64,000 nt of DNA from Catajapyx aquilonaris (taxonomy: Eukaryota), in assembly GCA_000934665.2 (NCBI GenBank), contig KZ538032.1, positions 62,001 to 126,000 on the forward strand, written 5' to 3'. Made by a program: the position numbers and the translations under genes. This document shows, in pieces, positions 2,820 through 28,598 of this stretch (its first letter is position 1; each line of letters starts with the position of its first letter). The notes beneath the pieces are model-generated. The model made no database searches and was not told where the DNA came from. It worked only from the letters and a program-made list of their open reading frames with translations.

Positions 2820-2970
2820 CAAGGGGGTAATCACTCGACTGAAAAGTGTACACTGGAGTAACAAATTCAAGGAGTACCAAGGAGTAATAAAGAGTGAGGT
2901 ACATGAGGAGTACCAGCTGGGAGTACCACTTTCAGGTGTACACCGGAATACCGAAGTGGTTACCCCCTTG
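2820..2970. mobile_element. hAT-type MITE (~150 bp)
   Basis: TIR CAAGGGGGTAATCACT / AGTGGTTACCCCCTTG, 8-bp TSD GTGCCAGT, internal GGAGTACC repeats. Confidence 0.9.
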
Positions 2971-3780: not shown

Positions 3781-3891
3781 CCGGAAGTCAATGCCCACGG
3801 TGGAGATGAAATTTCCGGAGAGGAAGCGGCCATCTTTGAAGCGGACGAGCAGACATGTCTTTCCCACCCCGGAGTCCCCGATGAGCATCAC
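3781..3891 (-). CDS. Rab26: Rab26/Rab37 canonical P-loop/switch I exon B2 ([37 protein letters not shown])
   Basis: 111-nt phase 0/0 exon with acceptor CAACAG| and donor |GTGAGA. The peptide carries the Rab26 signature ([21 protein letters not shown]). Confidence 0.95.
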
Positions 3892-6800
3892 CTGTTGAGC
3901 GTCCAATATTGTTTTCTCTTGTAATCAATTGAATCCAATCACATCTGATAACCGGTCAAGCTGCAATGTCTGGTCTCATTGACGTACTTATATACAAATT
4001 ATTTTTTAATAATTTTTCATTGTGAGGGTTTCATGCTTCAAATCACAAAGCCCATTGCTAATGAAAAGTATAGGGCTGGCAAATGATCAGAGCGTGCGTT
4101 TCCTAAAATGCTACCTTCTGGATAAACTTGCTTATTATGCCTGAATATTATGATCAGTTCATACAGTAATATAGCATGTGATTGACTGTAGGCTACAGAA
4201 GGAATTTTAGTTATGATGCGTCAATAATAATTTGGGCACGATACATGATGCCACTCTATCCCCGACTGACAGTAATCGTAATGGGAGCTATTGCCATGTG
4301 AAATTAGTAGCAGATGCAGGGCTGTAACATAATATATTTCTGCTGCATAATTTTGCAAACGAGTCACTGCTGCACCACACATGTAATTATTGACAGAAAT
4401 GTAATCTGGCCTAAATAGACTAATGTGATGCAGAAAAGTGACTTTCCTATACAAACTACTCGTACAAAAGAAATGCAAGGTCGAATAAAATGAAATTGAT
4501 CCTGCAATGACATGGTTACGTTCAGGAACGAAATATTAAAATTTCCATGTAACCTACCCATACCAATTTAATGGTTGACATCAGCCTGGCAGGAGAGCCA
4601 GAATATATTCCAAAAGGGACCCCCTGCCAGATCTCTTGAGGCTCAACTTCCATAATCTACGGCCGTTCGAGGTAACTTACGCATGGGATAACCATGGTAA
4701 CGAATCTAAAATGATATTCAAGTAAACAGCAAGTTACCCCTTACAGGAAAGTTGGCTCCACTTTCATGGTTCTTGTACACTTATAACTCTGCGAAAACAA
4801 TCTGATACCAATAGTGCTCATGATGTGCTTCAAAAATACAGTTTCCTGAAGTTACATTACTGTTGCACTTACATAACTTTTACTTGTTTAATTAATAAGA
4901 ACCAAACTTGCCACGATGGCAATAAAAAGCACCAGAAATATATCATGTTACCCTATGCAATTTTATGCACTGATCTTATTTCCCTAAATTCTGAAATATT
5001 CCTACAGACTTTCTGGCCTGCTCGAAAGGACCAGCACACCATGAAAGTAATATAGCCGGAGGGAAAAGTTTCCCGCTGAAGAAAGAATGAACTGGGGTGT
5101 TATCTTACCCGTCACCCTCGAATTAAAAGCCCATTTTGAGTCTGCTGGGAAGACTCCCCTGACCGCGCCATTCTCATCAAATCAAGCGGAAATCGTCTGG
5201 TGTTCCAATTAAGCATGATGAAGGGGCGCATATCGCGTCACAATTACTGCTCAGTGAGGATCCGGTGGCTCAAAATTCTTCATTAACCCCCTCGGCTTTG
5301 ATTTTGGCCAAATTATGATCGGGACCCTCTGCAAGGAGTGTCCAAGATACTCGACCTTTTGCCAAAGATGTGGCTGAATATGTGGTGTTCTTGAGAGGTG
5401 GTTGATATTTGAATGTTTTTAATTATGTTTCGGGTGGATATGCTATAATAATTATTTATTTTAACAAAATAAATGTACTGTACTGTATATCAAAAAAGAT
5501 CTGGTTTAGTACTTCCACTTTACAAAGTGTGAACAAAATCCGAGATACCAAATCTTGTATTGGACCGACGTGGAATGATCCTATAGATCATAGTATAAGC
5601 ATAGCTACATCAAGTTTTGTTTCATGTAGTAGCCCATTGGTTAGATTGGGAAATAGATCGTATTTTCCGGGTGAGTGCCTATGATCATTTATATAGGCAA
5701 TGTTATGGGACCGGTTAATGAGACAGACACGGAGTAAGTGTCAACCCCTAGCTCTTACAACTGCAGGGTCTTTAAAAATAATGATTTTTATAAAGAGCTG
5801 TAGTTAGTGAAAAGATACAGCTTATATTGCTGCTCAAAATGCCAATTCCGGAAAGTTGAGCCTATTCGGTCGATAAAGTTTGCCTTTTCGCCCCTGTTGT
5901 CCTTTTTGTAAGCCTAATGGACCATTGAAATGATGACAGAGTATCTGCGGAAGAGCGGTTCCATTTTCTGAATTCCGTTTCCATGCGCTATCGTCCTAAA
6001 AAGCCGTTACTATACCATGCGATATTGAGCACATGGTTCGGTTACCATCCAATAATTTGCATAGTGCACTAAAATCCTTAGCGTTATGCTATCTTCTGAA
6101 TGTAGTGCTAACATCAGGACAGTAAAGTGTTTTGATAGGGTTGCACATTACTATGGAAATAGGTTAATTATACATGTGCAGCATAATATTTATTTTCAAC
6201 CTACTACAAGTGTAAAAAGTGAGGTTAATAACGGATCGGGACTCTACCTGTAACAGTTGGTGCCCATAAATTTAGCCATCGTCGGTGCCTGTAAACGGTT
6301 ATGACGCTGACGTAAAATGTGTTTTTTTTTTCTTTTGCAAAAAATCCCGTTTACAATATATTGGCACAGCGTTTTAGGACATTCGCAACTTTCTTTATTT
6401 AAGATTTAATAGCCTCACAGTTAATTTGCCTACTACATTTTCTCACATTATTCTCAAGTAATATAATAGAGACGGTATTTGACATGGCTATATCTATTTC
6501 ATGCAGCGAACGTCTCAAGGCAACTTATTACCATGTTCAGTTAAGAAACATTATCATTAAAAGCTTCATCACATGAACTGAATTCAGTTTTTGCAATATT
6601 CGTAATCATTTCATGAATATTGAACAACCATGATTGCTTTTCATATTTTTGGAGTCTTGGAGAAGCGCTAGACTCTTCTGGCCTCCTCTGCTGTCTGATC
6701 TCATAAAGCGTCGCCAGATCAGCCTGGGGCACACTTGGAGAGAACTGCTATGAGCGAATATTGGCACTTTCACTGCCTTTTTAAACAACTCACTGTAATT

Positions 6801-8325
6801 GAAATCTGAGGCTAAGCAACCCGTAATGAAGGTCTTGAGAACGCAAACGAGCCTTGGTGTAAAAAAATTTTCAAAAGCAAGTTGAAGCAACTACTGGAAA
6901 ATGTGTAGTGAGGTATATATGAGCTCGGTAGCTGTATATGCTCGTTTCTGCCCACCAAAAAACGGGCGTAACCAGATTAGGGGTTGGCCCAATTGAAGGA
7001 TCGCAGCTTCAAAGAGCTCATTCAAATTGCGTTTTACGCTGTAATTGGACAGACTCAGAATTTCGAATGTGGTTTCGCACCTGCGTTGTCACTGTACAGT
7101 ACACAAAAACTATACGGCTGTCTAATTTGCTCAAATCCAATATTCCATATTAATTACGTAGGTGACTATCGACTAGAGCAAAATTCATGTTCGTTCGAGA
7201 GAATTAAAATGCGATCCCCCTTATTTTATTTTAACTATATCCATTAATAGTAATATGAGCAACTATCATGCTATGGCGAATTTGAACACGCATTTTCAGC
7301 ACAGTTTTCAGAATTAATCAGTTGCACTTTCTAAATTCAACTTTTCTGAACTTTGTAGATGTGCCCAAAAGAACTTTAGGTTTATAAATAGCACATTTAA
7401 TTATGCTCATAAGAAGAATAAACCAACGTTTTAATTAGGCACACGAATAACATGGATGCCCTTTAAGAACTGTTTCTGCAGAACCACAGAACAGCACATA
7501 AGCCACACTTGTAATAATTAAAACCCGTGTGGTTCTAAATTATTCATTGTATTTGACTCCTGGCATTGTCGTCACGTTTACAATGCTACATTCAGTTGAT
7601 AGGTTCATACACTATAATACTACTATAGGAAAGGTTGACAGTGGGAAGGAGAGGATGGATAGGATAGAGTGAGGCGTAGGTAGGAGAACAATATAAAATT
7701 TAGGTCGTTAAGGACATACCAGATATCTGAGTAGCAGTAGAAGACTGCGGAGATGTCACATCAGTTGACAAAAAAGTCATTTGATGTACTATATCTCTCA
7801 AAAAGACGAATACGATTTTGTATTTGGTTTCAATGCAAAATCGTCTCTATCTTTTTGAGCGATATAGGAGTGATGTTTACAAAATCGTCAAAATGATACT
7901 GAGACAATATTTAGCAAATTTTTTTTACGGAAAGAGGCAACGCAATAACGAGAATCCGGTGTCTTTTCAAGGCGTACTGAGGCGCATATACTGTATATTT
8001 TTAGAACGTAGGTATATTTAAAATCACCTTAGGTTTTATACACCTATTGGCCCAATACTTTTCATCTGCACTGCTGCATTGCATGACGTAAAATTTGCCC
8101 TGTACAGTGTTCACACACGCGTGTAGTTGTATTACATGTTCCTCATTCACGTGTTTTCGCGGTAAAGCCCACGCACGGTGTTTCCCCCCCAGCATATGTT
8201 CACGTAATAGAACCACCTCTCAAGAGCCACACATTTCAAAACAGTTCCAGACCAGACATGATTATTTTCAGTCCCGATTGTAGAATGCCGACTAGAGAGC
8301 TGATAAGCCCACTATCTGAATTTAC

Positions 8326-8580
8326 CTTCGATATGACGTCATAAGGTTCGGGAGGGGCGGACATGCGACGTGTAGGCGGGTACACAAAGTTTGCGTTGCC
8401 TTTTGTATAAGCTCCAGGAGATGGCGAAGATGGACCCCGGCTTCCAGACCTAGGACTCAGTGGTGGCCTAGGACTCAGTGGTGGTCTAGGACTCAGCGGT
8501 GGCCTAGGACTCGGCGGTGGCTCCAGGCTTTGTCTCCTGCTGCTCACCCCAGAGGATGACCTCCTCAGAGGTCGACTCAT
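8326..8580 (-). CDS. Rab26: Rab26/Rab37-family GTPase, alternative first coding exon B1 (85 aa, MSRPLRRSS...PYDVISK)
   Basis: ATG at 8580 (TAAAATG) with an in-frame TAG upstream. Ends TCG AAG|GTAAAT (phase 0). YDVISK fits the YDxxxK that precedes beta-1 in Rab26/37. An acceptor CCCTTTTTCACCCTCCTCCAG| opens the exon at 8674, giving a 94-nt 5'UTR. Confidence 0.87.
8448..8519 (-). repeat. Coding 18-bp tandem repeat encoding PPPSPR(PPLSPR)3
   Basis: Units of CCTAGGACTCAGTGGTGG repeat about 4 times on the + strand inside exon B1. Confidence 0.9.
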
Positions 8581-9122
8581 TTTATACGGGGTCACCGGAC
8601 ACTAGAGTAAACAATCACCCCACACTGGTTGCCTTTTGGGGCAATGCGGTCTCTAGGTGGTGGCTGACCAACATCTGGAGGAGGGTGAAAAAGGGTCACA
8701 AGATGGTCAGAACAACATGGAAGACTTTGGACACCACCTATCAGTGTGAAGCTCCGAATATAGGTTAGGTGACGGTGCTTGTAATCTCAAGAATCGGAGC
8801 TACGACGCAATAGCACCCCTAATTTAATCCCAGGGGGTCGCACAATTAGGGGGCTTATGAAGTTACCGTTTGCATGGTAATGCGGGTGTGCAGAAAATAC
8901 TCGTACGGTTGTCCGTAATAATGTGGAGATTGTTTAAGGTTTAAGCTGATAGGAAAAGGACTTTCAAGTCTATCACTTCGGGAATATTATTGTGGAAAAA
9001 ATATCTGGCAGTTTTGGTTTGGACCCAAGTTTGATCCTTGGTGATGAAGGATGTACTGTACACCCTACTCTACATCATCGACATGTGGATCTGCGAGGCA
9101 ATTTACAAGTACAGGATATTTA

Positions 9123-9248
9123 GGCCCGGTTTCACCGAGCTCGGTATATGATAAAACCAGGTTTCTTTAGGAAAATCCATACAAATATGTAGGGATTTTC
9201 CGAAAGAACCCTGGTTTTATCATATACCGAGTTCGGTGAAACCGGCCC
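9123..9248. mobile_element. PIF/Harbinger-type palindromic MITE
   Basis: Nearly whole-length inverted repeat GGCCCGGTTTCACCGAGCTCGG...GGTGAAACCGGCCC with TTA TSD. Confidence 0.85.
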
Positions 9249-12200
9249 TTAGTAACTTTACTGAATTAGCAAAACCAAAAAGCCACTTTTAGAATATGAT
9301 AGCCATAAGTAGCATGTTGAAAAATCATCGCCGGATTTATTTTTTGCGAACTACATTTATCAATCTATACATTTTTATCACATCTGTTAATTTTAATATA
9401 ATATGCATTTTGTATCACTGAAGAATTCTTGCACATATTTAGAATATGTATACAGTACGAATTAAATCAGGGAAGAGTTTTAACAACTATAGACATACAC
9501 GCTGACAGATCAAATAACAGTTAATTGCTTCAGAAAAGCTAATCGGTAGTGGCTTTAGAATGTCGCGTGCAATTTCTTCTGGATATGTAAGCCAGGAGTT
9601 ATAAAAATGGATTGTTTGATAATGAAACTTCTGACGGTCATTTTGTTGTTTATACCATACCGGTATATTTTATTGCTTGCTTCCGTTCAAATCTACTCCT
9701 TTGCTTATTACTGAGTCTGATATTTCTGATTCACGAAACAGTCTCATGAGAATCTTGGAAGCCCTTCTTTTCAGCTATGCAAACGAAACGCAATCATGTT
9801 GTTCGAAGATGAGCGCTCAGGTGGATTTCACACTTTTTCGTGAAGGCATTAAGAACGTCAGCTATCCAGTAGGAAAAAGGGTGAAATGAAGCAATTTAGG
9901 AGGGTCGATCTCCAGAAGAGTCGGCCGTTTCCAGAAAGGTGACCCTCGAAGGCCCTTTTATAGGATTCTGATAATGGAGGCAAGTTCCAGGTCTGTCTCC
10001 TAACTGCAGTAGTAAGAGCTTCATTATTAGAACCTCTCCAGAGTCCATTTGTAGACCTTGCGAAATCGTGCACCTACGCTATATACAGGCAGTATATGTG
10101 TAAACCTGTAGTGGTCTATATAAGTGAAAATCTCGAAAACAGACCCTACAGATTCTATTAACTACTTACATTATGTATTTTACTTATATACTGTATGCAT
10201 AGTATACTATAATGGCATAGGCTTAGTTTAGGCATGTCAATGTCCTATAGTAACTTGAAACTATGCGAGTAATATTTCCACTTGTCAAACACCGCTAGAG
10301 GGGAATTTTTTAATATAAAAGGGAAGGGCGAAAAGCATCAGGTGTTACGTGGAATGATTTGTTACCTGAGAGACTTGAAAAGCATTCTCGGCTCGCAAAA
10401 TGACAAAAGAAGTACGGTACAACTGATGCCAGGGTGGCAGGAAATTTCATGGAAACGAGACTTTAATGATTTTCTACCTTAGAGTCTCTTCTACAGCAAT
10501 TAGTTTGCGGCTGTCGACTTCATAAAGCGCCGACGACAACCAGTGACAATATCTTACGCGTGCTGCAACGATTTCAGAGAAGACCTCCGGAGTAGATCTT
10601 AGTATATACCAGTGTACTAATAGAACACCAGCGTCATGGGATTTTTATATCCCCAGTAGGGCCTCTTCTCTGCTCTTTACCTCTTAAGTACGTACACTCC
10701 TAAAAAAAAAACCCTACTCCTCCCTTCCACTCCTACCATGATATCCCTGTTTGTCTACTAGTCCTACAGTGCTATCCCACGGGTACAACTGCCACGGAAA
10801 CTATTTCTACGCACCATCTTCTATACCCCTTTGATTTCCGATTTCCCTTCCAGAATGAACTATTTGGAATACTTTCCCACCACGACATCATCATCAGAAT
10901 CTGTCAACGCAGAAGTCAGAATTGCTAGCAAATCAACAACGAACGTCACTTCAGCGTCCATAGGACCAAAGAGAAATAGATGATTCTGATTCTGTTACAG
11001 GGTTTACCCTGGGCAATAATGGATTTAGCATCGTATTGACTTCCGCTTCTCGAATGTTTTCCTTTCCCGGTCATGGCAAAAAGCAAAGGCCCGGCTTTTT
11101 CATTCGTTTTATGGAAATAAAATCAATTTCCTGGCCCCATTCAAACGCTCTCTATGCTTTTATTTTTCCTACTGCTGAGAGAACACTGTCGCATCGTGCG
11201 AAGTGTAGCCTGCAGCCAATGATATAGCCACTATAGGTCGGAATTAATTTTGGCACTGACTACGCCTATAGACATACAGTATTGTTGCTTCAACACCGGA
11301 CTATCGGACACGTGGCATCTTCAGAAGAGATAGCGGATGATATGGTTTTAAACGGGAATGGAATTACCATAATAGTCCATACTAATTTAGGTGCCTCAGG
11401 GGCAGAAACCTTAGCATGAAATCTGGACCTCACGTCGTTATAGATATAGCCATGTAAAATATGCTCGCCAATTTTATCTACAGGTTATCTTCATATTGCC
11501 GTGTGTAACGCACGACCTTTTCAATACTCACGCTGATTAAACCGCAGTGATTAAATTATGCCTAGATTTTGTGAGAATACCGTAATATAATATTATAGCG
11601 CCAGAAAAAAGCCCCGCTTCGCTGTCGGACCTAATACAAAAGTTTCGAGGATCAGAAACCCGATAGCACGACGTCGAATTGAATGTACAGGCTAACTGGA
11701 TCCCAATATGCGACAAGGGTTAAAAATCACGACACTGTGCCGAAAACCACTTTGGGTTCAGAAAACTTGTGCAGTTAGAGCCAACATCCCTCTCAACCCT
11801 CCAGTGGGACCGAAACTGGGAGATATTTCCTCAGGCTATATTTTGGCTAATAGGGCAGGCACTCAAGTTCAATCCGAGCGGAAATCTAGGTTGTGATGTG
11901 GAGTTGCCGATACTGAAAAGACACTCCGAGTTGCCAGGAAAATACTACAGTAGGTCAGTAATAATCTATGTGAATAATCATAGTTATAGGAAAGATTAGT
12001 CGGGTGTATTGATTAGCTAAAACTTAAACCTGATTCGGTTCCAAGTCTGTCAATCCATAGTTTGCAGAACCTTCATCTATAGACCCAACACATCATACGC
12101 GAGCAGTGATCATTACAACTGTGCAACTGCCACGTATGAACCTGCCAGGTAGTAGTGCATACAGTGTGGGAATAATGCAACTCCACTTGCTGAATATCTG

Positions 12201-12738
12201 ACCAGTTTTTAAAAATTGGCCTAATTGGGAGTTGTCTTGAAGAATTAATGACACTTTACAGACATGAATAATTTTGGCGCTGGCAGTTTGGGCTATACTA
12301 TGCTGCACATCTAGCCCTATTTACAGTGTTAAACTGAAGCTTGGAAGCTCGATTGTGCTTGAAAATGACCGGAAGCGATGTACAGGACTGGGTACAAAAA
12401 GCCAATCTCCGCTCAGTCGACGTCACATCTGGGTACAGACTAAGAGCGCTCACAAACACTTGTACGCGTGTTCATCGCAGATGTACGAAAGTGGGGGATG
12501 AGAGAGATGGGCTTGCTGGGAAGTGAAGGCGGAAATGGGGAAATAGGCAACAATCATTATTTCCCACATCGATTCAGCCGGTAACTATAATCAAAAGCCA
12601 TTGATTGGTTTTCGACCACGCACGTCATCTATTCCACAAAATAACAGCTAGACCGACATTTTGCACACAAAAAAATATAAATGAAAGGAGTATGTGGCAC
12701 TCCCCAACACTTACTTTACATCTCCTCATATCCCGCCC

Positions 12739-12801
<63 letters not shown>
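12739..12801. repeat. (AAT)n microsatellite
   Basis: About 21 perfect units. Confidence 0.95.
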
Positions 12802-12802
<1 letters not shown>

Positions 12803-12916
12803 CTCCTATTATATTAGTCCATCCAGTTAACTTCCGGAAATCCACATAAGCGCTCAACTTCCTGGCAACACATGTACCATATATTGTACGTTCAAAAAAA
12901 ATTATCAAAGACTCAC

Positions 12917-12994
12917 GACAAGTAAACAACAACATGTCCTCACCACCAACGACGAGGAAAAGGATATGTAGAGGCCGAGGGACTACCGCCGACT
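12917..12994 (-). other. Candidate non-coding first exon for module B
   Basis: Inr-like TCAGTC (12996-12991) followed by a consensus donor |GTGAGT at 12916. B1 begins with an acceptor and so needs an upstream exon. An alternative donor |GTAAGC lies at 13037. Confidence 0.3.
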
Positions 12995-13037
12995 GATGTG
13001 ATCATCGGGCACTCTCGCTACAGCACCGTGCGCTTAC

Positions 13038-13051
13038 GTCACCATGGCAAC
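13038..13051. promoter_or_regulatory. RFX X-box motif with overlapping CRE-like site, in the candidate promoter of module B
   Basis: GTCACCATGGCAAC matches GTHNYY-AT-RRNAAC. TTACGTCA at 13034-13041 overlaps it. A minus-strand Inr TCAGTC sits at 12991-12996. Confidence 0.5.
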
Positions 13052-16000
13052 AGGTGGAGTACAGGGTGGAGGGGAAGAGGGGTGGGAGGATAGGTGAGTC
13101 CGGGGAGTGGGGGTGCGGTGAGCACCTTTCATCGTGTTGCACTCTGTGCATCGTAAACCACCTCGCACGGGAATTACATCTGCATTTTTTATCGCTGCCA
13201 GTTTAGTGAAATTATCTGGAAGGTGCTGGGGAGGCATAGATTCGGATCCAATCGAGTACAGTATGATGATACAGTATCGGAAATGGACTAATGATATGCT
13301 GTGTTTACAGCTTCATGTACAGTATGAAGAAAAGGCAAGGCGCGCCTTATTGAAATATTAATAAGTGGCCTGTTTGCACATGTGCTTCTGAAATTGAGCC
13401 TAGAATTACATATGGAATGTATCAGCCTTGTTTTAACGGCTTTATCAGTGATATGACGTTTGCATGATAAGACAAGAATGTGGCCTTCACAAGTTAGCTA
13501 CAGTACATTTTTATATATTGTGCTTGAAATACAGTGATACCTGTCTATAAAGGACAACTGAATACAGATGTAACTTGTCCTGTGCGGAATTTTTGTTTGG
13601 TCGCGGCTGAGGATGGTCAATGGTCGCATATAACGGAAACTAATCTTCTTCGGTACGGAAACTTTTCGGCTCCAAAATGTACATGTTACAATAAAGTAGG
13701 TCTAAGGAGTCGTTCCTAAAGTACGGCACACATGTAGGGAAGTTGATGCCACCGTGTCTGATCGTAATGTGGACGTGACCCTCTTTGATTATGCATCCGA
13801 CAATGAGACTTTTGTGGAGGAATCTCCAAAGCTGGAAGGGGCTAGTGGGACTGTTCTGCAGCCTAAATATATTAGCGCGGGAGGTTGAGCCTGTGTGACT
13901 CTGCTTGACGTGGGAGACGTGGAGGGGCAACAGTCCAAAAATATCATATAAGAATGATATACAGTCACGAGCATAATGATGGAAACAGACTTAGGAAGGT
14001 GATAACACAAGTTCAGTAAAAAAAACTGGTGATGTACTGCACGTATTTAGCTAAACGAGAATATAAGCATAATAAGCCATAAACCTGACGTGAGGTTCGC
14101 TAAACGTCGAATCATTTCGATAATGAATATACCTATGTATAAAGCTTGGACGTTATAATTGCCATACTTTTAAAAAGAAATTCATCGCTAAAGATTTTGT
14201 TCCTGGCAAGTATAAACCTTCTTCCCATCAACATTACTTTGCAAAGCTGCATCACGGTATTAAATCTGCACTTATTTTTAGTCCATTATTTTAGAGAACA
14301 CTTTATTGAATAAATTCAGGACGTATTCTGCCCTATCTATTTGCATGGAAAAGGAGGGAAGCATCAGGTGAGGTGGCGGGGGTGTTGGATTCAACAAGTG
14401 ATGTGTGTTTTGAAATTGTCACTTGGGGGACCCAGAAGGCCCCTTTTTTCCTGCAATCCCATTGCACCACGGGGAATATTGCGCAACACCTGTCGTGAAC
14501 ACTATAATATTATTTACCCTCGACCTGACAAGTGTGTATGAGAGAGGGGTGGGGGAGTGGAGGGCAGAGGGGGATCTGCAAAATAATACCTCTGAAGAAA
14601 ATCACGCAGGAATAAGGCTCGGTTGAGATCGACGTTGTTATAAGACATTGGGTTGATAGCACCATTGTGAGCGCCAGAATCAAAACAATACCACCATATA
14701 GGTGCTGATTTTTGTGTGTGTATTTGCAACGAGTACCGCATATAATACACACTTTATATGCCGAAGTCACTGTTGGAAAGTGGAATTTTCACACTCGTCC
14801 ATTTCATCTTAATGGTACCGTACACAATGCACGTAATGCAGAGCGCAGAGAATTTTCGCCTGCGGCTGCAGTCATAGGCTGTTGCTATACTTTTGAAGGA
14901 AAGTCAACGTCAGGTTACATTTTTCATTATACTGACTTTTCAACTCTGACAAAATCGGACAGTCTCCATACTCTTCAAAGAGTTTTAATCAGGCTAAAGC
15001 TCTCAAACCGCCATGTAATTCCTCCCGAGTCCCAAAATTGGTGTATACGCACCAAGGGCTTTACCTGGCTACAAATTTGTTTCCTAGCAACAAATGAAAA
15101 AAAGCACATTTTTATAAAAATTTTCAGTAGCTATACTGGTGTCTGACTTTTCTTGGTACCACACTCCTCTCCGCACTGGCAAATTAATCTCGCATTGCAT
15201 GCTTTCACTTTGATAAGTCCAGCTGCTTCATCATTTCAGCGAAACTGTAAAGTGACTATTGCACCTGTGAAACTTTTCTTTGAGTCTGGCTGCCCTGCTG
15301 CGCTGAAAATGGTCACTTTGAACCGATCATACCGTTACCTTTGCAAGTTCTGACGGCACCTGCAGGTGGCCTCGAGGATTACCGTACAGTTCATTAGAGG
15401 GTTATAGTGTATTGCTATACTGTATAAAAGATCTGTAGTATATGCCGAAGCGACGTATATACGTTGATAGCTAAGGCAATTATTTTGAGCCTGAAAAGAT
15501 ACTGACAAAATCAATACGCTAAACCTTTTTAGTGGGAACAAATATCTTTCCCTGATTGTTGTCATGGCATGGCGCACCCGTAAGTGACGTCATTGAGATC
15601 TTATGCTAATGACGTCCTTTTTGGCCTTATTTTTGTAAATGAAAAAGCGAAATTCTCGGAAAACATGTAAATACATGGGGAAAAATAAACTCACGACTAT
15701 AAAGCGGCTTGCTTTGAAAGAACGGTCCAGGAATACGCTACATGAAAGCGCGCTTTAAAATGTGGGAATTTCAATGATATCTACGTATAATAAGACTGAA
15801 AGGCAGCTGTACATTGCTGATAATAATATTGCCTTCGGTGCTGTGTGCTTACACAGCCTACAATTCAAATCGGAATTTTTATATATATAAAAGGTATAAA
15901 GCGAGATTAATTATCTCTTAATCGGGAGGTTGCTTGACATGAAACGAGCCCTATCTTACTCGGCGGTAAGTCCTTTCAGGGAAACCTTTTGAACATGAGC

Positions 16001-18511
16001 CAAGAGGGATTTTTTAGCCCCGAGGAGAAGGAAAAATAGAGCGAAGTTGGCAGGCGAACTTCCACTGAGTTTTGATTCACAGAGGTCAACAAACGTGCCT
16101 TCGTGCAGTGGAGTTATGGCCCCTTGAAACAAATATAGCTGACTTCAGAAAGGGATAAATCAGGCATCTTGACATACGCTTTCCAGTATTTCAAAAGCAT
16201 ATTTTTTGTAGCACCTGGTTTTCCCTATCGTCACCCATTGATTGCTGACTCTTTGGGTTTGCACATGGCTGTTGAACGTTTCGTGCTCGACGGAAGCAAA
16301 CAATAAGCCGGACTTATTGATGTGTATTTTATGCAAGGTTTGTGCCGAACCTGACACTGGTGGGATGATCCCCATTCAACCCAAGGGAAAATCAGGAATG
16401 GTGGCCTGCGAGGCAGTGGAGGGTGTTACAAGTGCTTTTGCCCTTGCCTTGGAATCAAGTGTCACTAATTTAAATTTGCAACCTAAGCAGATTTTAAATT
16501 TTCAACATACTGAAAACCACTGTATACCACTGCTGCTATCAGTTACAACCTACAATATTATTGTACCTGAACATAATGCCGCAATTTTTTGTTAGCTGTC
16601 GTCTGAGCTGGACAAATATCTCCGCAGGATCATCAATACATCAAGTCTTGAGAAACTGTGTGGAAATCATTCTACATTTCACAGACGGCAACCGAATAAT
16701 GCCAGCGAGATTCTGGGACAAAAGGCTAGCCTACTCCACAAACTAAGGACAGAATATCATTTTAACAACCTGAACACATCAGTGTGACGTATATGCCAAG
16801 GGACTAGAGTTCTTTCTTTCTATGCAATATCCACAAATTTATATTGAGACATTGCTATACTACTGCACTGCATGGGTACAGTCTCGCCTCATATTCCAAG
16901 GAGATGGTGTACCGGTGCTGCGCGGCAGATGACATTGCCTATATACAAACCAGGCTTTTTCAGATGAAAGTGAGCCAGGCTGTACTCAAACATCGTCATA
17001 AATAAGTCCGGGAGCAAATGCAGACTGGAATAAAAACTGGCTTTGTCACACTTTTGGCCCATTTGTGGGTAGCATGTACAAGCCAATACGCATCTATTTG
17101 GTATCAAAATCATCGACCTCCTGCCATTTTGACGATTCTGCAAATATTCGTACTTAAAAGTGTGTTAAGGACAGTATGTAGCATAGGTTTTATTGTAATC
17201 AAAAACTCATATCTGAAAAGTGCAAACAGGACACCTCTCTATATGGCCTGACAATTCAGATTCGTCACTAATGTTCATGTCCATTTGCCTGTCTCCGTAT
17301 TTACCATTGGGAGATGTTTTGATGTCAGTCACCGATCTTCAACCAATGTTTTCTTCAGGGAAAGCAGAAAAGAGTGTAATATAAACTCATTGCGAAACTA
17401 CAGTGAGAAAGGGCTCCAACTGTGCAATGCGTCATTTTTGCGACATTCCATTGATGACGCGTTACAGGTTAAAATGATAGACAGTTTTGTTTCGTTTTTT
17501 TTTTCAAAACGTCCCTCAAGTAGCCTACAAGTTTTTGTTCCAAAGTCTCCACAGGTTGGGTATAGGCATCATAAATCTGGATAATAAAATAATTGTTTAA
17601 AATGTTGTACTTCACGCAGGGGGAGAGAGGTTTCGTGTTAGCAGTACCGGTAACTGCTTTTGAATCCAAATCAATCTGTTACTAGCTTGAAGCTGCTCTT
17701 CTATGTTTTTAGAAGCGAAGCGACTCCATCACCTACATTCGCAATACTCTGTCTCTATCCCTAGAGGAAAGAACTTCCCTAAGTTGTATCCTGAGTGACA
17801 GCAGGAACTTATACAACTCCTCTATAGTTCAGTACGGTCACGACAATTCTATCCACATCGTATGGTTCCCTTATGGCCCCTAAGGACTGCTCTCATTATT
17901 TGAGAAACCCCCCCTGGAACATTGTGAATGAAGGACGATGTGCAAGTTTTTATAGATGCCCTGCAGCTCTTAGGAGGTTGATGTGTAAGGATAACGGTTC
18001 AGTGACACCTTTGAAGTTACAGGTGGGAGTTTTCGCTACAGAGAATTTACACCACGTATCCGGCCAGATATAGCGAATTTATTTCCGACCTCATTTTTGA
18101 AGAAAAAAAAACTACCTCTAGGATGTATTCACATGCCCATCAGAGGTCTTCCGCATTAAAGTGTAATACATTAATATGCTACACGTTCCGAATAAATTTG
18201 GACTTTTTAAGTTGCTAAAGAACAATTATGGGAATATTCGATTCGAAATGAATAATCCCATCCAACTCAGCTGTTAATGAGCCACATTTAAAAAAATATT
18301 ATCCCCATGATATCACGCATTGTCCAGGCCATTCACTTTCCATTTGCCCTGTTACTCATATTAACTACCCGTTCATATCATAGACCCAATCATGAACCAT
18401 CTTTCATTATAAATGAAACACCACACTGTCTTGCTAGCATAGCATGCTTTGGTTTTTCGGTGAATAATCTGAGCATAATTTAGTGAGTAATGGAGTAATG
18501 AAACTCAAACT

Positions 18512-18790
18512 TGACCGAAGCAGTGGTGGCGGAGGGAATATGGTATCCCACTGCTAATCGGGAGGTCCTGGGTTCGATCCCCGGGGCCGGCAACCCTAAC
18601 CGTGGTTTTCTGTGGTTTCCCACGGTCCCTCCAGGTAAATGCCGGGGTTGTTTCCTAAAATAATAGGCCACAGCCGCTTCCTTCCGTCCCTATCCTATCC
18701 CCAAAAGCGAAGTAAAAATGCAAAGAAAGAGTTCCAGTCAAAACAAAAAAACTCCCCCCTAAAGAGCCGCCGGCTGATAACGGGGTATGA

Positions 18791-18875
<85 letters not shown>

Positions 18876-18878
18876 TAA
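18512..18878 (+). mobile_element. tRNA-derived SINE, family 1, full length
   Basis: A-box-like TGGCGGAGGG, CTGCTAA loop, B box GGTTCGATCC, body GTGGTTTTCTGTGGTTTCC...GGCCACAGCCGCTTCC and (ATT)n tail. 15-bp TSD AATGAAACTCAAACT at 18497-18511 and 18879-18893. Confidence 0.92.
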
Positions 18879-21800
18879 AATGAAACTCAAACTCGTGTAC
18901 AGTAGGCCTACACCTGTGAGTTCACACTCCAGCTCCAGCCGAAGTTTACGGCGTCAGTGGAATTAATCCATAATGTTGTGATGAAACCCTCATCACCTTT
19001 GCATCATGGCGAGGGAGAACGTGCTGTAATAAATCCAATAGTGTCCGTATTTACTACTTTAGTAAATTTTACAGTGAACGTTTAAACGTGCACTGTAAAA
19101 TTTAATCTCATTTTTTCCATATAGAGAGGGTTACAATTTGAATGATCATTTTAATTATTTTTGGCACTAAGCTTTTAATCAGTTTTTAATCAGTTACCTT
19201 TGACTAGTATAGTTATCGAAAGTGTTGGCTGCTACTAAAATTATAGGTCGCTTGGACAAATTAATTATTTTAAACACCTGCAAAGGGGTCTGGCCTCCAA
19301 AAAAGAAAACACAAGACATTCGAAGTCAACTGTTCCAATGGGCAATTCCCAATCGAAAATTCATTGCAATTCAGAACTATAGGGTATATGATCCAATTCG
19401 GCCTAATATTAGCAGCTAATTTTTGATTAGGGCCTACCACTAAAAGTAACTACCCCTGAGTTTCTCTTTTCAAGATAATTTTCAGCTCATAGTTTTAAAA
19501 ATGGTTAAGGTGGACATTTCAACTGGACGCACCTTGTATGAAAAGTATTATACGTTTCTGAACTAAATACTCGAATCTGCCTGTCTCTCGTACAACCTCC
19601 CACGATGCTGTTTTATACAGAAGGGAGACTTTTTGACATCGGTGTTCCACCGACGCCTGGTTAATTCATCGGATTAATTAATTAGTCATGCTTATTATAT
19701 GACACGACACGGTCCGAGTGAGTTAACACAATTTTAGCTGCAACAAGGTCACCTACCGGTGATGCACAGCTGCTTGGTGCCAGAAAAAGGCTTGGCAAAA
19801 TCATTCATAAATTATTTTCCCGCATCCCATTTGCACTTACAGTAGTTAGTTACATTTCCAATCTCTGTTTTGCTGCCTACAGTACCTATCATTGCATAGT
19901 GCCGCGTGTCTGTTTGTCTTCCCACGAAAGCAGTCGGCATTTGATACGAAGCACAACCAGGTCTGAGAAAAAACAGCATATGAACTGTCATATATCGTGA
20001 ATGCGGTATTGTGAAAATGGACATCTTAAAACATGAACTGTTTAACATTATCGTGAAGTTGAATATTACGCCGTTCGAGAGTGAAATGATGCAAATGAGA
20101 AGCTGGGAATATGGGAGGGCAAGAAAAAAAATCCTACCGAGTTTAGCATGTTCCGTGCGCATAAATTATTTTGCATATCCGGTTAGTGGATTACATAGAA
20201 TACTGTTCACTTTATAGTTGTATTACACGAAATGTTCGCTATAGCTTTTATGTTTTGACTTCTATTCAATCAATTATTTACTTACGCAGCCTCCAATCAG
20301 CCATGGCAGCGCAGCGATCTAACCGGTAGGATATTATCTAATACAATATGGATTTTGTCCCACGTCGTAATGACGCCACCATATTTAAATTACGTAAAAT
20401 GTTTTGGCTTCTGAGTGAGTCGGATATGCCTAATGCCCTAATGGCCATGCCTATCCATAATAAATATCTGGGAATTACTGGCCATTTTATACCGTTCAAA
20501 ATTGTACCTTAAAAATCATTGGTCAGCAGCAAGTTTAATAAGAAGATTCAGACTCCTACTTATTACCAATTTGCTACAAAGAATGGATTACGTAAACAGT
20601 AGTATAGGCCTACTCGACTAGCGATCCTATCAGAGCCATCTATGGTTCATAGAGAAAACTTCCAGAAGTTGCTCGGACACAGCCAAATTACTTTCCTACT
20701 GGGTGAACGGACTCGGACAACTTCCAAGTTACTAGCGGTTTTTTTTTGTGTACAGTACATTTGACTCTACCTATGTCGTATTTGTGCCAACATTTAATTT
20801 GATTACATCTGTTATAATTTTTGCTAATACCTACATTAGTTAAAGCTCTTTACATACCAGTATATTTATATTCACGTTGTAATGAAAATATATCTCCAAA
20901 TGAAGTTTGGCAATTTCAAACTAACACATCGAGTCCTATTGACTGCTCTAGAGATGATGAATTGGCTGCATGGAACTACTTGTATATTGCAAACTAGTTC
21001 AAAATTCAGTCGTTATCAATTCTATGATGATATTTCATTATGACAGTCCTACCTCTGAGACTTTGGAATTTGCATCAGGACCTAATCAAAAGCTATTAAA
21101 TTATTTTAGATCGGGTTAATTTTGTTGCGCACTCACCCACCAAATTGCTAAATATTTACAAGGGAGAAATTACATTTCCCTCTGCCCCTTTCCACCCATA
21201 ATATTGGGTGCTATTTTGGTGCCATATCTCGCACATATAGGACAAGGCAAACCGAGGGAAAATGGGGAGAAAAATCATGGGACGCGTCATATAGCGACAT
21301 ATGATTGTTTCTATGAACTTTTCAAATCAATGAAGTTTCCCTAACTGGAACTAAGGTTATACTAATTGATACTACTACTTCAAGACGCAATTTTGCAGGT
21401 AAGTTTCCAGAGAACCTAACCACTGCGGACATTTCAATTGAAACATGTACTCGTATGTGGCACATGATGACGTCGTGTGATGTCTTACGGTTAGAATATG
21501 TTATAGACCTGCTCTTTGTTTTAAATTGCAATAAAAATGTCAAAGGCATCCTACAATGTTATATCGGTGAACTTTGAAGCTTTAAAGAGATGGCAAAAAA
21601 GCACTTTTGTTTCAACGCACCATCATTTATACAGCGTAAATTATTCTGCCCCCTACTCTTCACAGCACAATATCTCGCAGATAGGAATGAACATGCCTAT
21701 AATCCTGATTTTTCATGACACCAATGCAATTTATGCTTGTTCGTCTCGAAATATAAAATTTTCCCATCGCAGAGCACTTTAAATGCTATAATTTCAGTGT

Positions 21801-23594
21801 CAGGTTCACGGGCCAAAGGTGAAAATGAAAAGCGCTGGGAGCGAGGCAACAGGGCACGCTAAATTTTCCCAGCAAACAATTTAACCCCTGGTGGGTTCCA
21901 CACCCACGTACGTTATTACCAAGTATAAGGCTTATACATTTTTAAATGGATTGTAAATTGAAACTACCTATGCCTTCTAGCTCACCTTCTATCCCAGCCT
22001 TTCACCTCCGCACATAGTAACCCTTAGGAATCGATAAAGATGTCGGCAAGCTTGTCCATCACATTTACTTTATTAATTAACTCGTAATGTCCAGTCAGCT
22101 GTGGGATTTCATATTAAGCTCTCTCGATACTGGAGAAGGCCGATTATCAGTCCACTAATCATACACCAAGGCCTCTGGCCTACAACCCCAGGCCTAATTA
22201 GAAGGAGAGGATGTGCAGTAATTAGCGTCAAAGTCAACATGTCTTCTTAACTACCGTTAATGTAGGCTTACGCGACACGATGAGTTTTAGAAGAGGGAAC
22301 TCACTGAACACACTAATAATAAATTAATCCCTCAAGAATATGAATAACAATATATTTAAAATCATGCTAGGATTATTATTATTATTATTTCAGACAGAAA
22401 ATACATATCATGCCACTCTGAGACTATAATATTTTTAAATAGTTCTGATTTCATTTGTGTACTCGATGCGATTTTATTGACATTCTGATGGCACATTTCA
22501 ATACCTGCAGTCACCTAATATCCACCATGGAATAATTACTAGATGAGAAAATTATTCCTCCCTTCAATACGCCCGTGTTCGCTCATAATCCGATTCCAGT
22601 ATGTGCACGCCGTGATGTGCACTAAAGACATGTCTACCCAGAAGATATGCTGTGTCATTTGGAAAAGACTATTGGTTAAAATCTACGGCTCGGCGGCGTC
22701 ATTTGAGCTGGGAGAAAGAGACCTTCAGAACAACAGCAACGTAGAATTTATTTATCCGTCAGTATTACAAATGGAGCATTCTTGCTGTGCTGTGTATTTA
22801 ACGTTATAATATGCCTATGTAGCCAACTACCCCTACATAGAAACAGAGTAAAATGTCCATTAGATTTGTAGTAGCCTCGTTACTCTATTAATGTTTTATT
22901 CGTTATAACGTTTTTATTAACCTCGTTAACTTTGCATAGTACCGGTATGTAGTGTAAAGATAAACGTTTATTCTACACATTTATTTCATTCTTTCAAATA
23001 TGAGCAATCAAACAATCGGAACATCCTTCATGCATTCCACTGACAAGTGAGTACTTAGTCACATGCTAATGATATACAGAGTACTGTATTACCTCCGCCC
23101 CAAAATATTAAACCAATTACCCCTGTCATTTTCTCAAATGAAATTCATCATCATTATCCACTGGGCCCTGTGAGTAGTTACAGTTCAAGCCTACATTTCT
23201 GGTGTCCACTTTAGTCTAAACTGTTGCATGCGGCCTGGAACAATATACTGCGTATTACGGGGGCATTCTGATCACACCCTGTAGGCCTACACCCAAGTGG
23301 TAATTACATGGAGTGGCTAGTTCTCGTTGATTAGCAGGTTATAGCCTGTTTCCCCACTGTTTGAAGTTTTGTACTGCCCACTTTAGCAAGTTGGCCAAGA
23401 ACTCTCTCGTAATTTGCTTACTCATTCTCGGGCAATACACACCACCTGTAAACTATGAGGATCCAGTCTATACACCCCTGACTGGCAAAGTGTCTAATTC
23501 GTCACCTCCAACACTTAAGAGGCAACGAGTTGGTTTCCCAGACTCGTTAAAGTGACCCAAGAAAGATATTTGTTTGTTGCGGTGTCGTCCCTAC

Positions 23595-23705
23595 CGTAAA
23601 ACCAATACCAACGGTGGCTGAGAAGGTGCCAGTCTGGAAAGTTCCTGTGTCGAATTGGACCAAAAGAGATGTCTTCCCCACTCCGCTGTCACCCAGAAGT
23701 ATAGT
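23595..23705 (-). CDS. Rab26: Rab26/Rab37 alternative P-loop/switch I exon A2 ([37 protein letters not shown])
   Basis: 111-nt phase 0/0 exon with acceptor TATTTCAG| and donor |GTAGGG. Encodes G1 GDSGVGKT, the G2 Thr and a variant RabF1 motif VGIGF. Confidence 0.93.
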
Positions 23706-23974
23706 CTGAAATAAGATAGACGATGCGATGGTATATACATCAGTTGGCACTTGCCTCGGATACTAAATAACTCTTTGTTGTTATATATTTAAGAAAGTGT
23801 GTGAAACTTAAAATTTCATTAGTAGCCACTTGAGGCGTCGGAAGCAATAAAAGTTTGATAGGGAATGATGCTTCGTTTCCTGAAATTCCCATGAGGAAGA
23901 CTCAAGAGATACACGACCTATAATGGATTTCGACCAAAGTGACGCTGACATTCCATTTTGATGATTATTCTTTG

Positions 23975-24122
23975 CAAGGGGGTAATCACTCGACTGAAAA
24001 GTGTACACTGGAGTACCAAATTCAAGGAGTACCAAGGAGTAATAAAGAGTGAGGTACCTGAGGAGTACCAGGGAGTACCACTCGCAGGTGTACACCGGAG
24101 TACCGAAGTGGTAACCCCCTTG
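23975..24122. mobile_element. hAT-type MITE, same family
   Basis: Same TIR and body, perfect 8-bp TSD ATTCTTTG. Confidence 0.9.
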
Positions 24123-24361
24123 ATTCTTTGTATGTCCCCAAACCAGTGAGGAATGTGTGTCGCTACTAAAGTACAACTAAAGTTACTATTTCGTAATGAT
24201 TCCGACAAACCCGTAAGGTTGCATTCCTGGGTCCCAAGGATCATTTTATGTGGAGATATTTGGACTAGGGAACAGAGTTACTGTGATAGGCTTCGAATAG
24301 TTCAAACATTTCCTGATATGGTATGCCTCACTTTCCGATTCGGCCTTTTCACTAGGTAATA

Positions 24362-24571
24362 CAGGGTGTTTCAACTTTTTTGTCCGAACAGTTATCGGAA
24401 ATATTGCACTATAAGCTGCTATACTTTGTGAGCAGTGACTTGCAACTGGTTTGTCGGAGGAATGGGGAATATTCCCTGCGAATCTTAGGTTGAAGCGCAT
24501 ACACTGCTTACAAAGTAGCAGCTTAGTTCAATATTTCCGATAACTGTTCGGACAAAAAGTTGAAACACCTG
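24362..24571. mobile_element. Tc1/mariner-type MITE (CAGGGTG TIR)
   Basis: ~70-bp inverted arms and TA TSD; related copies at 34479 and 54388. Confidence 0.85.
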
Positions 24572-25473
24572 TATTCCTATAGGTATAATTACGGTACCTT
24601 ATTTCAAAGAAGTGGCATGACAAATCAGTGTCTTCGTCAGTATACTTTTATAGCTCTACGTTATCGTGTTTATCTAGAAGCCTTCACATTACTGATTAAT
24701 TAGTAGATCACCCCTAAGAGTGTTTCCCCCTGCTGATGATGACCCAAGTAGGCGAAAGATATAATTCTATTTTCCCAAACTACACATTCGATATGTGCCC
24801 TTCCAACATGAAACGAGCGATTAGACTATATAGTCAAAAATGGGCTCAGAATCCAAAACTCTTCGCAGCACCGAGGTAGGCTAATATAAATTCATAAATG
24901 TAACTATCTGGAGGGCAATTACAAATATGTCAAAAGCCACTAATTTGTTCCTGAATATTTCAATACAAGAGAAGTATACCTTAGTTGGAAATATGTTTAT
25001 TTTTGAGTTCAAGTTACCGGTATATGAATGTGCATGAATGTTGACGCACTGATATGTGCACAAGGAACATCTTGTGATATGAAAACTGGGCCTTTATCCC
25101 AGTCCAATACGGGGTCCATTTTTGTGATTGAATAATTGAAAGGTTTGGTGGAAAAACCTGATAAGTCCACTTTTGGGCGAAAATTAGTTATGGGTGGTTC
25201 TGCCACCTTGGGGCCATTCTGCAGCTTTTGGTACAAAAATTAATCCAGACCGTCCTGCCATGTAGCCCACTGAAGAAATATAGCCCTCCCAAGTGACCAG
25301 CGCAGCACACTGTCCAGAGCGCGCACCGGCTGCGTTTTCGCCCTCTCGCGGGTGAAATTCCAAAAGTCACCTCCTACACTTTTCGGAAACATGAAGCACA
25401 CATTTCACGCTTCATTTTCAGGTCCATTCAAAAAATCGTGTCACAGAGAGACGAAATCTTGGTTCCTTACATA

Positions 25474-25503
25474 CAGTACCCTGCATTAATGGCTATGCAC
25501 AGA

Positions 25504-25541
<38 letters not shown>

Positions 25542-25758
25542 AACAATAACAACAACAACAATAATGACAATAATAATTAATAATAATAAATAATAATAAT
25601 AACAACAATAATGACAATAATAATAAATAATAATAATGACAATAATAATAAATAATAATAATAGCAACAATAATGACAATAATAATAAATAATAATAATA
25701 ACAACAATAATGACAATAATAATAAATAATAACAATAGCAATCAAAATAGCAATAATT

Positions 25759-25794
<36 letters not shown>

Positions 25795-25812
25795 CAATAG
25801 CAATCAAAATAG

Positions 25813-25862
<50 letters not shown>

Positions 25863-26524
25863 TCATACCCCGTTATCAGCCTATCGGCTCTTTAGGGGGG
25901 AAGTTTACTTTTGCCTGGAACTTTTTGCTTTCATTTTACTTCGCTTTTTGGGATAGGATAGGGACGGGATGAAGCGGCTGTGGCCTATTAATTACGGAAA
26001 CAACTCCGGAATTTTTCTTTAAGGACCGTGGGAAACCACAGAAAACCACGGTCAGAGTTGCCGGCCCCGGGATTTGATCCCAGGACCTCCCGATTAGCAG
26101 TCGGACACCATATCTCCTACTCCAAACTGCTTCGGTGGCTATGCACAGATATCGCCACCTGTCCAAGAACTAGCGGAATTAGGAGTCGGTGGGCTGCGTC
26201 TAAAATACTGGACAGCTCAAGATATCGCGGTAGATTCAAATGCTTGTTACAAAGATGGATCACAGCGGATCACAGATAATTATATCTGTGGGATGAATAT
26301 TATAAGGCCATTGCGATTCCTATCAATGTATTGAGGTTGTGAACCAGTTATTACACGGACCACGCGAATGCCTGTTAATCCACCGCGATATCTTGAGCCG
26401 TCTATAGAGCGGTCTCGTGAGCAGTCTTAAGATCAAAGTATTTTGGACACAGCCACCGACGCCTAGTTCCGCTCAATCCCGCCAGGTGGCGATGTCTGTG
26501 GATAGCCATTAATGCAGGGTATTG
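25474..26524. mobile_element. Tc1/mariner-type MITE interrupted by a SINE
   Basis: After removing the SINE, the left TIR CAGTACCCTGCATTAATGGCTATGCACAGATATCGCCACCTG pairs with the right CAGGTGGCGATGTCTGTGGATAGCCATTAATGCAGGGTATTG. TA TSD. Confidence 0.88.
25504..26135 (-). mobile_element. tRNA-derived SINE, family 1, with ~360-bp expanded microsatellite tail
   Basis: Homologous to the 18512 copy. 14-bp TSD TGGCTATGCACAGA at 25490-25503 and 26136-26149 encloses the whole simple-repeat tract. Confidence 0.9.
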
Positions 26525-28054: not shown

Positions 28055-28303
28055 CTTATGTGTAACTTCCTCCTTGTATGGTGATGGTGGGCACAACACG
28101 TCAGGTGGTGGAACATAGTCGCGATATCCGGTTGGTGATACTGTCTTAGCCCCGCCATCTAACCTAACCCGGAGGTCAGCTCCCTCGTGGTGAGAGAGGG
28201 CAGGAGAAGGTCTTGACCAAGGGCTTCCGCTTGGGGAGCTATTTCGGACGCTTTCAGCCTCATCAGGTGATTCAAATACATCGTCGCTGAAGTCGTCCGC
28301 CAT
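28055..28303 (-). CDS. Rab26: Rab26/Rab37-family GTPase, alternative first coding exon A1 (83 aa, MADDFSDDVF...EEVTHK)
   Basis: ATG at 28303 in good context (GCAATGG). Ser/Pro-rich open frame ends CAT AAG|GTTAGA (phase-0 donor). An upstream acceptor TTTTTCTCTTTGCAG| opens the exon at 28400, giving a 97-nt 5'UTR. It joins in frame to 23705 to give [14 protein letters not shown], as in the alternative N-terminus of vertebrate RAB37. Confidence 0.85.
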
Positions 28304-28598
28304 TGCCTTTTGTATTCAGTGGCTAAGGCATGATGATGACCACGTGGCCTCCAACGCGGATACAGAAGGGCCCATGTATGGAATTGTCTTCAACTGATGC
28401 CTGCAAAGAGAAAAATACACAAAGGAATCAGTCATGGATCCAAATTAGACTCCGTATGGATGGACGATTATTACCCAAGTTAAAGCTGCTATTTTTCAGT
28501 TCATTCAAAAATCCAAAATGTATCAACAAGGAAACAAGAGTCTGGTATTCTGCTTCAATATACAGGGTGGTATGCTAACCCCTTCGCTACCAGCTAGG

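Follow-up and report, generated by a model that had tools for sequence, protein, structure and literature searches.

A probable two-headed Rab26/37 gene with alternative P-loop/switch I exons in Catajapyx aquilonaris

The closest described counterpart of the locus discussed here is human RAB37. Its entry in Martinez-Gomez et al. 2021 (PMC8373072) gives the same pair of 37-residue exons (chr17:74729256-74729366 and 74740768-74740878), as used in the forms ENST00000402449 (..GIGFT/NKV..) and ENST00000613645 (..GIDFR/NKV..). In the supplement and text of that work the event is assigned to the Bilateria, a Drosophila orthologue is reported, and a different interaction surface is proposed for the two products. 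Human RAB37 has further been described as giving coding transcripts of 216 and 223 aa with tissue-specific use (PMC9714508). RAB6A/RAB6A' (event 172, PMC8373072) likewise derives two GTPases from one Rab gene via duplicated homologous exons. Its printed exon, however, begins near the WDTAGQE region and not at the P-loop, and the event is listed as internal and of vertebrate age, whereas the RAB37 event goes together with separate first exons and dates back to Bilateria.

The window analysed comprises 64,000 nt of Catajapyx aquilonaris (GCA_000934665.2, contig KZ538032.1, positions 62,001 to 126,000). A preliminary description, made from the letters of the sequence, had reported two same-strand, 111-nt, phase-0 modules, each with its own ATG exon; translation, exon borders and reading frames bear this out. 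The features, in coordinates of the window, are as follows.

28055..28400, minus strand: exon A1, the distal ATG exon, including a part of the 5' UTR which reaches an AG acceptor at 28401-28402
28303 to 28055, minus strand: coding sequence of A1, 249 nt, 83 aa, phase 0, ending ..EEVTHK, donor AAG/gttaga
23595..23705, minus strand: exon A2 (the A or GIGFT module), 111 nt, phase 0, ending ..TVGIGFT
8581..23594, minus strand: 15 kb separating A2 and B1, intronic for distal-promoter transcripts; contains the proximal promoter region and zero Rab coding exons
8326..8580, minus strand: exon B1, the proximal ATG exon; coding sequence 8580 to 8326, 255 nt, 85 aa, phase 0
3781..3891, minus strand: exon B2, the canonical Rab26/37 P-loop/switch I/RabF1 module, 111 nt, phase 0, ending ..TVGIDFR
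1..3780, minus strand: beginning of the intron 3' of B2

A2 and B2 each translate into 37 stop-free residues containing GDSGVGKT and TVGI(D/G)F, and both are flanked by cag/exon/gt borders. They are identical at 22/37 residues and 66/111 bases. The pyrimidine tract of the acceptor is strong in A2 (15/20) and weak in B2 (8/20). Both A1 and B1 carry in-frame stops immediately 5' of their ATG, and those of B1 preclude read-through into B1 from A2. The coding sequence of B1 ends at a donor AAG/gtaaat, and its protein is proline/serine-rich with a PPLSPR repeat; the position 8580 given for this exon is the start of its coding sequence. Given the AG acceptor at its 5' border, A1 is probably preceded by an untranslated exon farther upstream.

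Human RAB37, as printed in the supplement of PMC8373072, shares with the window two homologous 111-nt/37-residue exons running from the P-loop to RabF1, the same break point before NKV, and a separate N-terminal exon for each form. The two human isoforms which the preliminary description had named (GIGFT/NKV and GIDFR/NKV) are indeed those given there. By eye, 31/37 positions agree between A2 and the human A exon as printed there; the latter has the lower coordinate of the human pair and lies ~11.5 kb from B, whereas the spacing in the window is ~20 kb. Of the present locus, the window shows the 5' exons. That the human A exon is also the 5'-distal one depends on a plus-strand orientation of RAB37, which we take to be the case.

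Eight full-length Rab26/37 protein queries, compared with the whole window by tblastn (E<=10, word size 2), matched A2 and B2 at E 1e-12 to 4e-18, and the best solved-structure match to A2 was human Rab26 (2g6b, E 9.6e-9), followed by Rab27A (E 3e-5). The tblastn values and the match to the Rab26 structure together mean that the likeness of these exons to Rabs is not a chance one. All homologue matches named as Rabs by their sources were Rab-37, Rab-37-like or Rab-26. The locus is the 5' half of an animal Rab26/37 gene on the minus strand. The segment encoded by A2 runs from beta1 through P-loop, alpha1 and switch I to a variant of RabF1. The G1 P-loop, GxxxxGK[ST], is present in both modules. 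The consensus of RabF1 in the Rab family is IGxDF; B2 (TVGIDF) and A2 (TVGIGF) both keep the Thr of switch I, while A2 shows a change from Asp to Gly in RabF1 which recurs in 87% of 31 A modules.

The relationships of the modules were assessed with a tree built at the level of exons. It comprised 31 modules of type A and 23 of type B, drawn from the window and from 30 of 145 retrieved homologous proteins, the latter selected for taxonomic spread. It had been predicted that A exons would cluster with vertebrate GIGFT exons and not with B of the same species. They do cluster with vertebrate and arthropod A exons: a single branch with 100/100 support divides A from B, and the window's exons fall on the expected sides, each being the orthologue of its counterparts elsewhere, as in a duplication that predates the divergence of the species. 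None of 500 label shuffles matched this separation. Across 23 species, mean pairwise identity was 84.1% for A-A and 80.3% for B-B, against 58.8% for A-B within species, and by this measure the A module is constrained at least as strongly as B. The P-loop and the Thr of switch I are invariant in the A modules as well as in the B modules of the tree, the differences between the two groups being concentrated at positions 1-2, 13, 17-25, 27, 29-30, 35 and 37. B2 is 92% identical to B modules of flea, sandfly, lamprey and hagfish. A disused relic of exon duplication, decaying in this genome, is a scarcely credible account of A1 and A2: the latter has an intact frame, AG/GT borders, a strong acceptor tract and protein identities of 97% (A modules of Hemiptera and cockroach) and 86% (those of bat and alligator), and in A1 the ATG, the frame, the donor and the conserved motifs are all preserved.

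A motif scan and tblastn found no G3 (DTAGQ), G4 (NKxD) or G5 (SAK) motif and no prenylation cysteines in the 64-kb window, nor any Rab exon besides A2, B2 and the two ATG exons, positions 1-3780 on the 3' side of B2 included. The preliminary description had noted that WDTAGQE and NKxD exons were missing between the modules, and in the interval 8581-23594 no tblastn match was better than E 0.11. One weak tblastn match, FRNKLVAFDIFVIALQI at 24905-24955(-) (E 1.8-4), lies in the intron between A1 and A2, 5' of A2, and was rejected as chance as it has no supporting context. The five ORFs of at least 150 aa in the window had no Pfam match, and an Rfam search of the window returned no match. Since the 64 kb hold no other Rab exon, the shared exons (NKV.., WDTAGQE, NKxD, SAK and the C-terminal cysteines) are expected beyond coordinate 1, and our judgement is confined to the 5' half of the gene. 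The ATG exon possessed by each module might suggest two tandem Rab paralogues, each with 3' exons of its own. We regard this as very improbable: the G3-G5 exons, which are the family's most conserved, are missing between A2 (23595) and B1 (8580) and elsewhere in the window, and the A and B forms of orthologues, such as the human pair printed in PMC8373072, have identical downstream sequence.

It is thus very likely, in our estimation, that a single Rab26/37 gene splices either A1+A2 or B1+B2 onto common 3' exons to produce two GTPases. A1+A2, the distal unit, and B1+B2, the proximal one, would provide an N-terminal tail and one homologous module of 37 residues apiece, and either would be spliced to identical downstream exons outside the window. 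The two GTPases would have G3-G5 and a prenylated tail in common and be distinguished by alpha1, switch I and RabF1, which form the face of Rabs that exchange factors and effectors read. Transcripts from the proximal promoter could not include A2, while those from the distal promoter would have to skip B2 in order to yield the A form. Both the shared 3' exons and the skipping of B2 are elements which we infer from orthologues and the literature. An inverted-repeat scan of positions 1-28500 found no sequence feature enforcing such skipping; long-range RNA pairing which would loop out B2 was considered and rejected, the inverted repeats there being only microsatellites, copies of dispersed repeats and a foldback element.

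The 145 retrieved proteins, classed by module order, offer a view of the forms annotated in relatives. A-only products, with A2 joined to NKV, account for 23/145 and occur in Hemiptera, cockroach, beetles, wasps, shrimp, scorpion, ticks and horseshoe crab; four of the 23 are cDNA-like, with full-length ORFs on contigs of 1.3-1.9 kb. A further 98/145 carry A2 and B2 adjacent and in frame, and another 11/145 carry A2, an insert and B2, counts which are favoured by both search lists because two domains are scored in each tandem protein, so that these rank first. Mutual exclusivity of A2 and B2 is thus not what automated annotation mostly reports.

Distal transcripts might, then, mainly join A1, A2, B2 and the shared exons, placing an extra N-terminal P-loop/switch I half-domain before a complete G domain, with the A module serving as an appendage, or as a competitor of B for the core, and not as a replacement. 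The breadth of the 98 tandem entries invites this reading, as they include hagfish, lamprey, fish, amphibians, reptiles, birds and mammals among the vertebrates and insects, a barnacle, a spider and a centipede outside them. So does the anatomy of the locus: A2 and B2 are both 111 nt and phase 0, so that inclusion of both stays in frame and would escape nonsense-mediated decay, and the first acceptor 3' of the A2 donor is that of B2, given the stops 5' of the B1 ATG. We nonetheless think it unlikely. The 98 tandem entries and the 11 with an insert stem almost all from genome annotation (one of them, present solely in a catalogue of metagenomic proteins, includes a translated intron). There are no cDNA-like contigs among them, against four among the 23 A-only entries, even though tandem proteins outrank the A-only ones in the same search, a ranking itself inflated by double-domain scoring. 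The human transcripts given in PMC9714508 are of 182, 186, 191, 216 and 223 aa, a 253-aa form being missing from that list. Moreover, the invariant P-loop and switch I Thr of A modules are hard to explain unless A works within a complete G domain. AlphaFold2 models, each built on a shallow alignment, gave a mean pLDDT of 63 for a tandem form (a spider sequence aligned with 44 tandem rows; most of both modules, residues 14-87, <50, core 70-93) and of 65 for an A-only control (a tick protein plus 22 rows; residues 62-78 <50). The module is badly resolved in both, and the models favour neither form. That the in-frame A2+B2 transcript is nevertheless a real, conserved proteoform, in which either module completes the G domain or the spare one regulates, strikes us as quite unlikely.

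Drosophila Rab26 models, too, contain both kinds of module, the A-type one (..TVGIALT) and the B-type one (..TVGIDFR) standing behind a long A1-type tail that bears an SDDVFE motif, and all five of the Drosophila and Bactrocera models retrieved (the D. melanogaster protein not among them) are tandem. In the tandem model of D. ananassae isoform C the Thr of the second GKT is residue 204 and the Gln of DTAGQ residue 250, in agreement with the names of the stocks Rab26[T204N] and Rab26[Q250L]; some fly reagents may, on this numbering, contain the A2+B2 tandem form. An A-only protein with one residue more than the D. sechellia model (203+1, 286-37+1) would, however, account for the same numbers just as well.

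The two-headed Rab26/37 arrangement is real, ordinary and already known. Its principle is in the literature, as are its occurrence in human and fly and its dating to Bilateria, and both forms are widely annotated; the window adds one more orthologue. The preliminary description had proposed an ancient bilaterian arrangement with different effector faces; the dating to Bilateria and the reading in terms of a different interaction surface both stand in print in PMC8373072. It is a clear instance of an exon duplication, no younger than Bilateria, that would allow one Rab gene to encode two switches with different faces towards regulators and effectors. Anyone working with Rab26/37 reagents or annotations should check which head the construct or model has, and the tandem models with a double P-loop, very common in databases, need validation at the level of transcripts. 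Literature searches on the A and B forms found only the descriptive papers PMC8373072 and PMC9714508.

The N-terminal exons are lineage-specific. B1 showed no significant similarity to N-termini of other species (best E 0.13) and is thus without a detectable relative, while A1 resembles arthropod A1 exons and differs from its counterpart in human RAB37. A word-indexed search with A1 gave no match, and a full HMMER search of a representative library gave three, of which two were genomic A1-exon ORFs (E 7e-7 and 6e-5) and one was of low complexity. By tblastn its similarity reached E 1.3e-4 and 8e-5, and by local blastp E values as low as 2e-12; A1 is homologous to the arthropod A1 exons, with which it has the motifs DDVFES and SPTGYRDYxPP in common. 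The signatures of A1 and A2 are pancrustacean-like.

Two 111-nt exons on the minus strand, exactly where the preliminary description had placed them, translate without stops into 37-residue P-loop/switch I/RabF1 modules, and each is indeed preceded by an ATG exon of its own ending in phase 0. The two-exon observation is thus confirmed, and its interpretation as a two-headed Rab26/37 gene is supported.

Exons of the Rab26/37 gene in the window
28303->28055, minus strand: exon A1, distal ATG exon; 83 aa, phase 0 end, ..EEVTHK followed by gt
23595-23705, minus strand: exon A2, distal module; 37 residues, stop-free, TVGIGFT
8580->8326, minus strand: exon B1, proximal ATG exon; 85 aa, phase 0 end, ..ISK followed by gt
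3781-3891, minus strand: exon B2, proximal module; 37 residues, stop-free, TVGIDFR

Both modules encode the P-loop GDSGVGKT, helix 1, the switch I threonine and a RabF1-type motif, are bordered by cag on the acceptor side and gt on the donor side, and agree at 22 of 37 residues (66 of 111 bases). An in-frame stop lies directly 5' of the ATG in A1 and likewise in B1, the latter making read-through from A2 into B1 impossible, while an AG acceptor at 28401-28402 suggests another, untranslated exon upstream of A1. The acceptor pyrimidine tract is strong at A2 (15/20; 23706-23730, minus strand) and weak at B2 (8/20; 3892-3916, minus strand); the latter, a single observation, would fit regulated skipping of B2 in distal transcripts. 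B1 also carries a short tandem peptide repeat (8447-8520, minus strand; PPLSPR three times plus a PPPSPR variant) with no counterpart in the B1 exons of other species.

The remainder of the gene was sought by a six-frame motif scan of the window and by a tblastn search at word size 2 and E<=10 that used eight full-length Rab26/37 proteins. Matches arose at three places only: A1 (E 8e-5 to 0.02), A2 and B2 (both E 1e-12 to 4e-18). In 1-3780 and in the interval separating the modules, neither approach found NKV..WDTAGQERF, NKxD or SAK exons. The earlier claim that no WDTAGQE or NKxD exon separates the modules therefore stands, the idea of two separate paralogues is contradicted, and the shared exons must lie past the window's left edge. 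A weak repeated match at 24905-24955 (E about 2-4), inside the A1-A2 intron, was taken as chance.

That the distal exons should group across species rather than with their same-species partners was borne out by a tree of modules from 30 proteins, picked for taxonomic spread, plus the two of the window. One branch (support 100/100), kept in all 200 bootstrap trees and equalled by none of 500 label shuffles, divides its 31 A rows from its 23 B rows. A2 sits with the A rows, nearest to a bug and a cockroach (97%), and B2 with the B rows. Across the 23 species with both modules, A modules are on average 84.1% identical to one another and B modules 80.3%, and the A and B of a single species average 58.8%. 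Arthropods and vertebrates must thus have diverged after the duplication, and constraint on A is no weaker than on B. The two modules agree over positions 5-12 (P-loop) and 31-34 (TVGI), the diagnostic differences falling at positions 1-2, 13, 17-25, 27, 29-30, 35 (Gly vs Asp) and 37 (Thr vs Arg), which in Rab nomenclature belong to helix 1 (its end), switch I and RabF1. Judged by its sequence, exon A1 is old as well: it has DDVFES and SPTGYRDYxPP in common with arthropod A1 exons, and matches two genomic ORFs with an identical ..HK/gt break point. Among the sequences retrieved, the A1 and A2 signatures are otherwise found in insects and crustaceans; no relative of B1 was detectable.

This architecture is not new, being published, widely annotated and of bilaterian age, and the window contributes one more orthologue. 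In the portions consulted, Martinez-Gomez et al. 2021 (PMC8373072) list RAB37 among tandem exon duplication-derived substitutions, date the event to Bilateria with a stated Drosophila orthologue, map it onto structure 2g6b of Rab26, and suggest that the residues in which the isoforms differ make a surface patch letting them bind different proteins. The supplement prints both human proteins and their 37-residue exons (A, chr17:74729256-74729366; B, 74740768-74740878), each followed by NKVVTVDG. The human isoform pair had accordingly been described correctly, and the idea of an ancient bilaterian gene making two GTPases is supported, yet was already in print. No paper comparing the A and B forms functionally was found in the literature searched, subscription journals lying outside its coverage.

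Most likely, one gene comprises two promoter-plus-module units leading to the same 3' exons. A proximal promoter would lie between A2 and B2, so that its transcripts could carry B only, and distal transcripts would have to skip B2 to yield the A form. Alternatively, distal transcripts may retain both modules, giving a double-P-loop tandem protein as a minor product: A2 and B2 are in frame with each other, the first acceptor reached after A2 is that of B2, and the tandem form is widespread among the models of annotation pipelines. With the A2 query lengthened to 40 residues, 805 proteins were significant; most of the best 120 of these have A2 followed immediately by B2, and the named ones, which come from vertebrates, insects, a spider and a centipede, are all Rab-37, Rab-37-like or Drosophila Rab-26. 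A second query, an A-only leafhopper protein spanning the junction of A2 and the first shared exon, showed that this prevalence owes much to ranking: with two modules to score, tandem proteins head the list. Beneath them rank A-only proteins (GIGFT joined to NKV) of Hemiptera, cockroach, beetles, wasps, shrimp, scorpion, ticks and horseshoe crab. In addition, full-length A-only ORFs occur on four contigs of 1.3-1.9 kb, whose only possible origins are spliced cDNA or retrocopies.

A recount of 145 retrieved proteins gave 98 tandem-adjacent, 11 A-insert-B and 23 A-only, the other 13 being fragments or unclassified forms. Tandem models are automated, place their P-loops 37 residues from each other and occur from hagfish through to insects (P0003-P0125); they derive almost entirely from genome annotation. 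One A-insert-B model, P0065, whose only source is a metagenomic protein catalogue, continues through an intron. Against the tandem form as main product, none of its models is a cDNA-like contig, though such contigs would have ranked first, and the human coding transcripts cited in the part of PMC9714508 consulted (182, 186, 191, 216 and 223 aa, one group cerebellum-specific) include no 253-aa form. Moreover, the invariant P-loop and switch I threonine of A are sensible only within a complete G domain. Either annotation errs systematically in the tandem models, or they reflect a genuine minor isoform. In relatives, the skipping of B2 that gives the A form is shown by the human transcript and by the cDNA-like contigs that carry A only. 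AlphaFold gave low confidence in the module region of both a tandem protein and an A-only control, the alignments being shallow. The numbering of the fly stocks Rab26[T204N] and Rab26[Q250L] (PMC9813115) fits the B module of a tandem D. ananassae model (Thr204, Gln250, 388 aa; Drosophila models P0105, P0107) and, just as well, an A-only protein that exceeds the D. sechellia model by one residue.

Upstream of A1 (28401-64000) no recognisable gene was seen, its four ORFs of at least 150 aa had no Pfam match, and the window had no Rfam match; an assembly gap of 86 N (44707-44792) lies outside the finding. A 191-nt inverted repeat pair (18527-18717 and 25934-26124, 87% complementary) flanks A2 on both sides, and related direct copies at 25993-26137, 28976-29120 and 60941-61085 mark it as a dispersed short repeat element. 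The intervals 12739-12837, 18770-18877 and 25517-25890 contain long (ATA)n/(TAT)n microsatellites as well as a degenerate tandem array, which lies in the A1-A2 intron and has units of roughly 9-16 nt. At 9117-9254 there is a near-perfect foldback, its 67-nt arms 90% complementary and separated by a 4-nt loop; situated some 540-670 nt upstream of the ATG of B1, it resembles a miniature inverted-repeat element.
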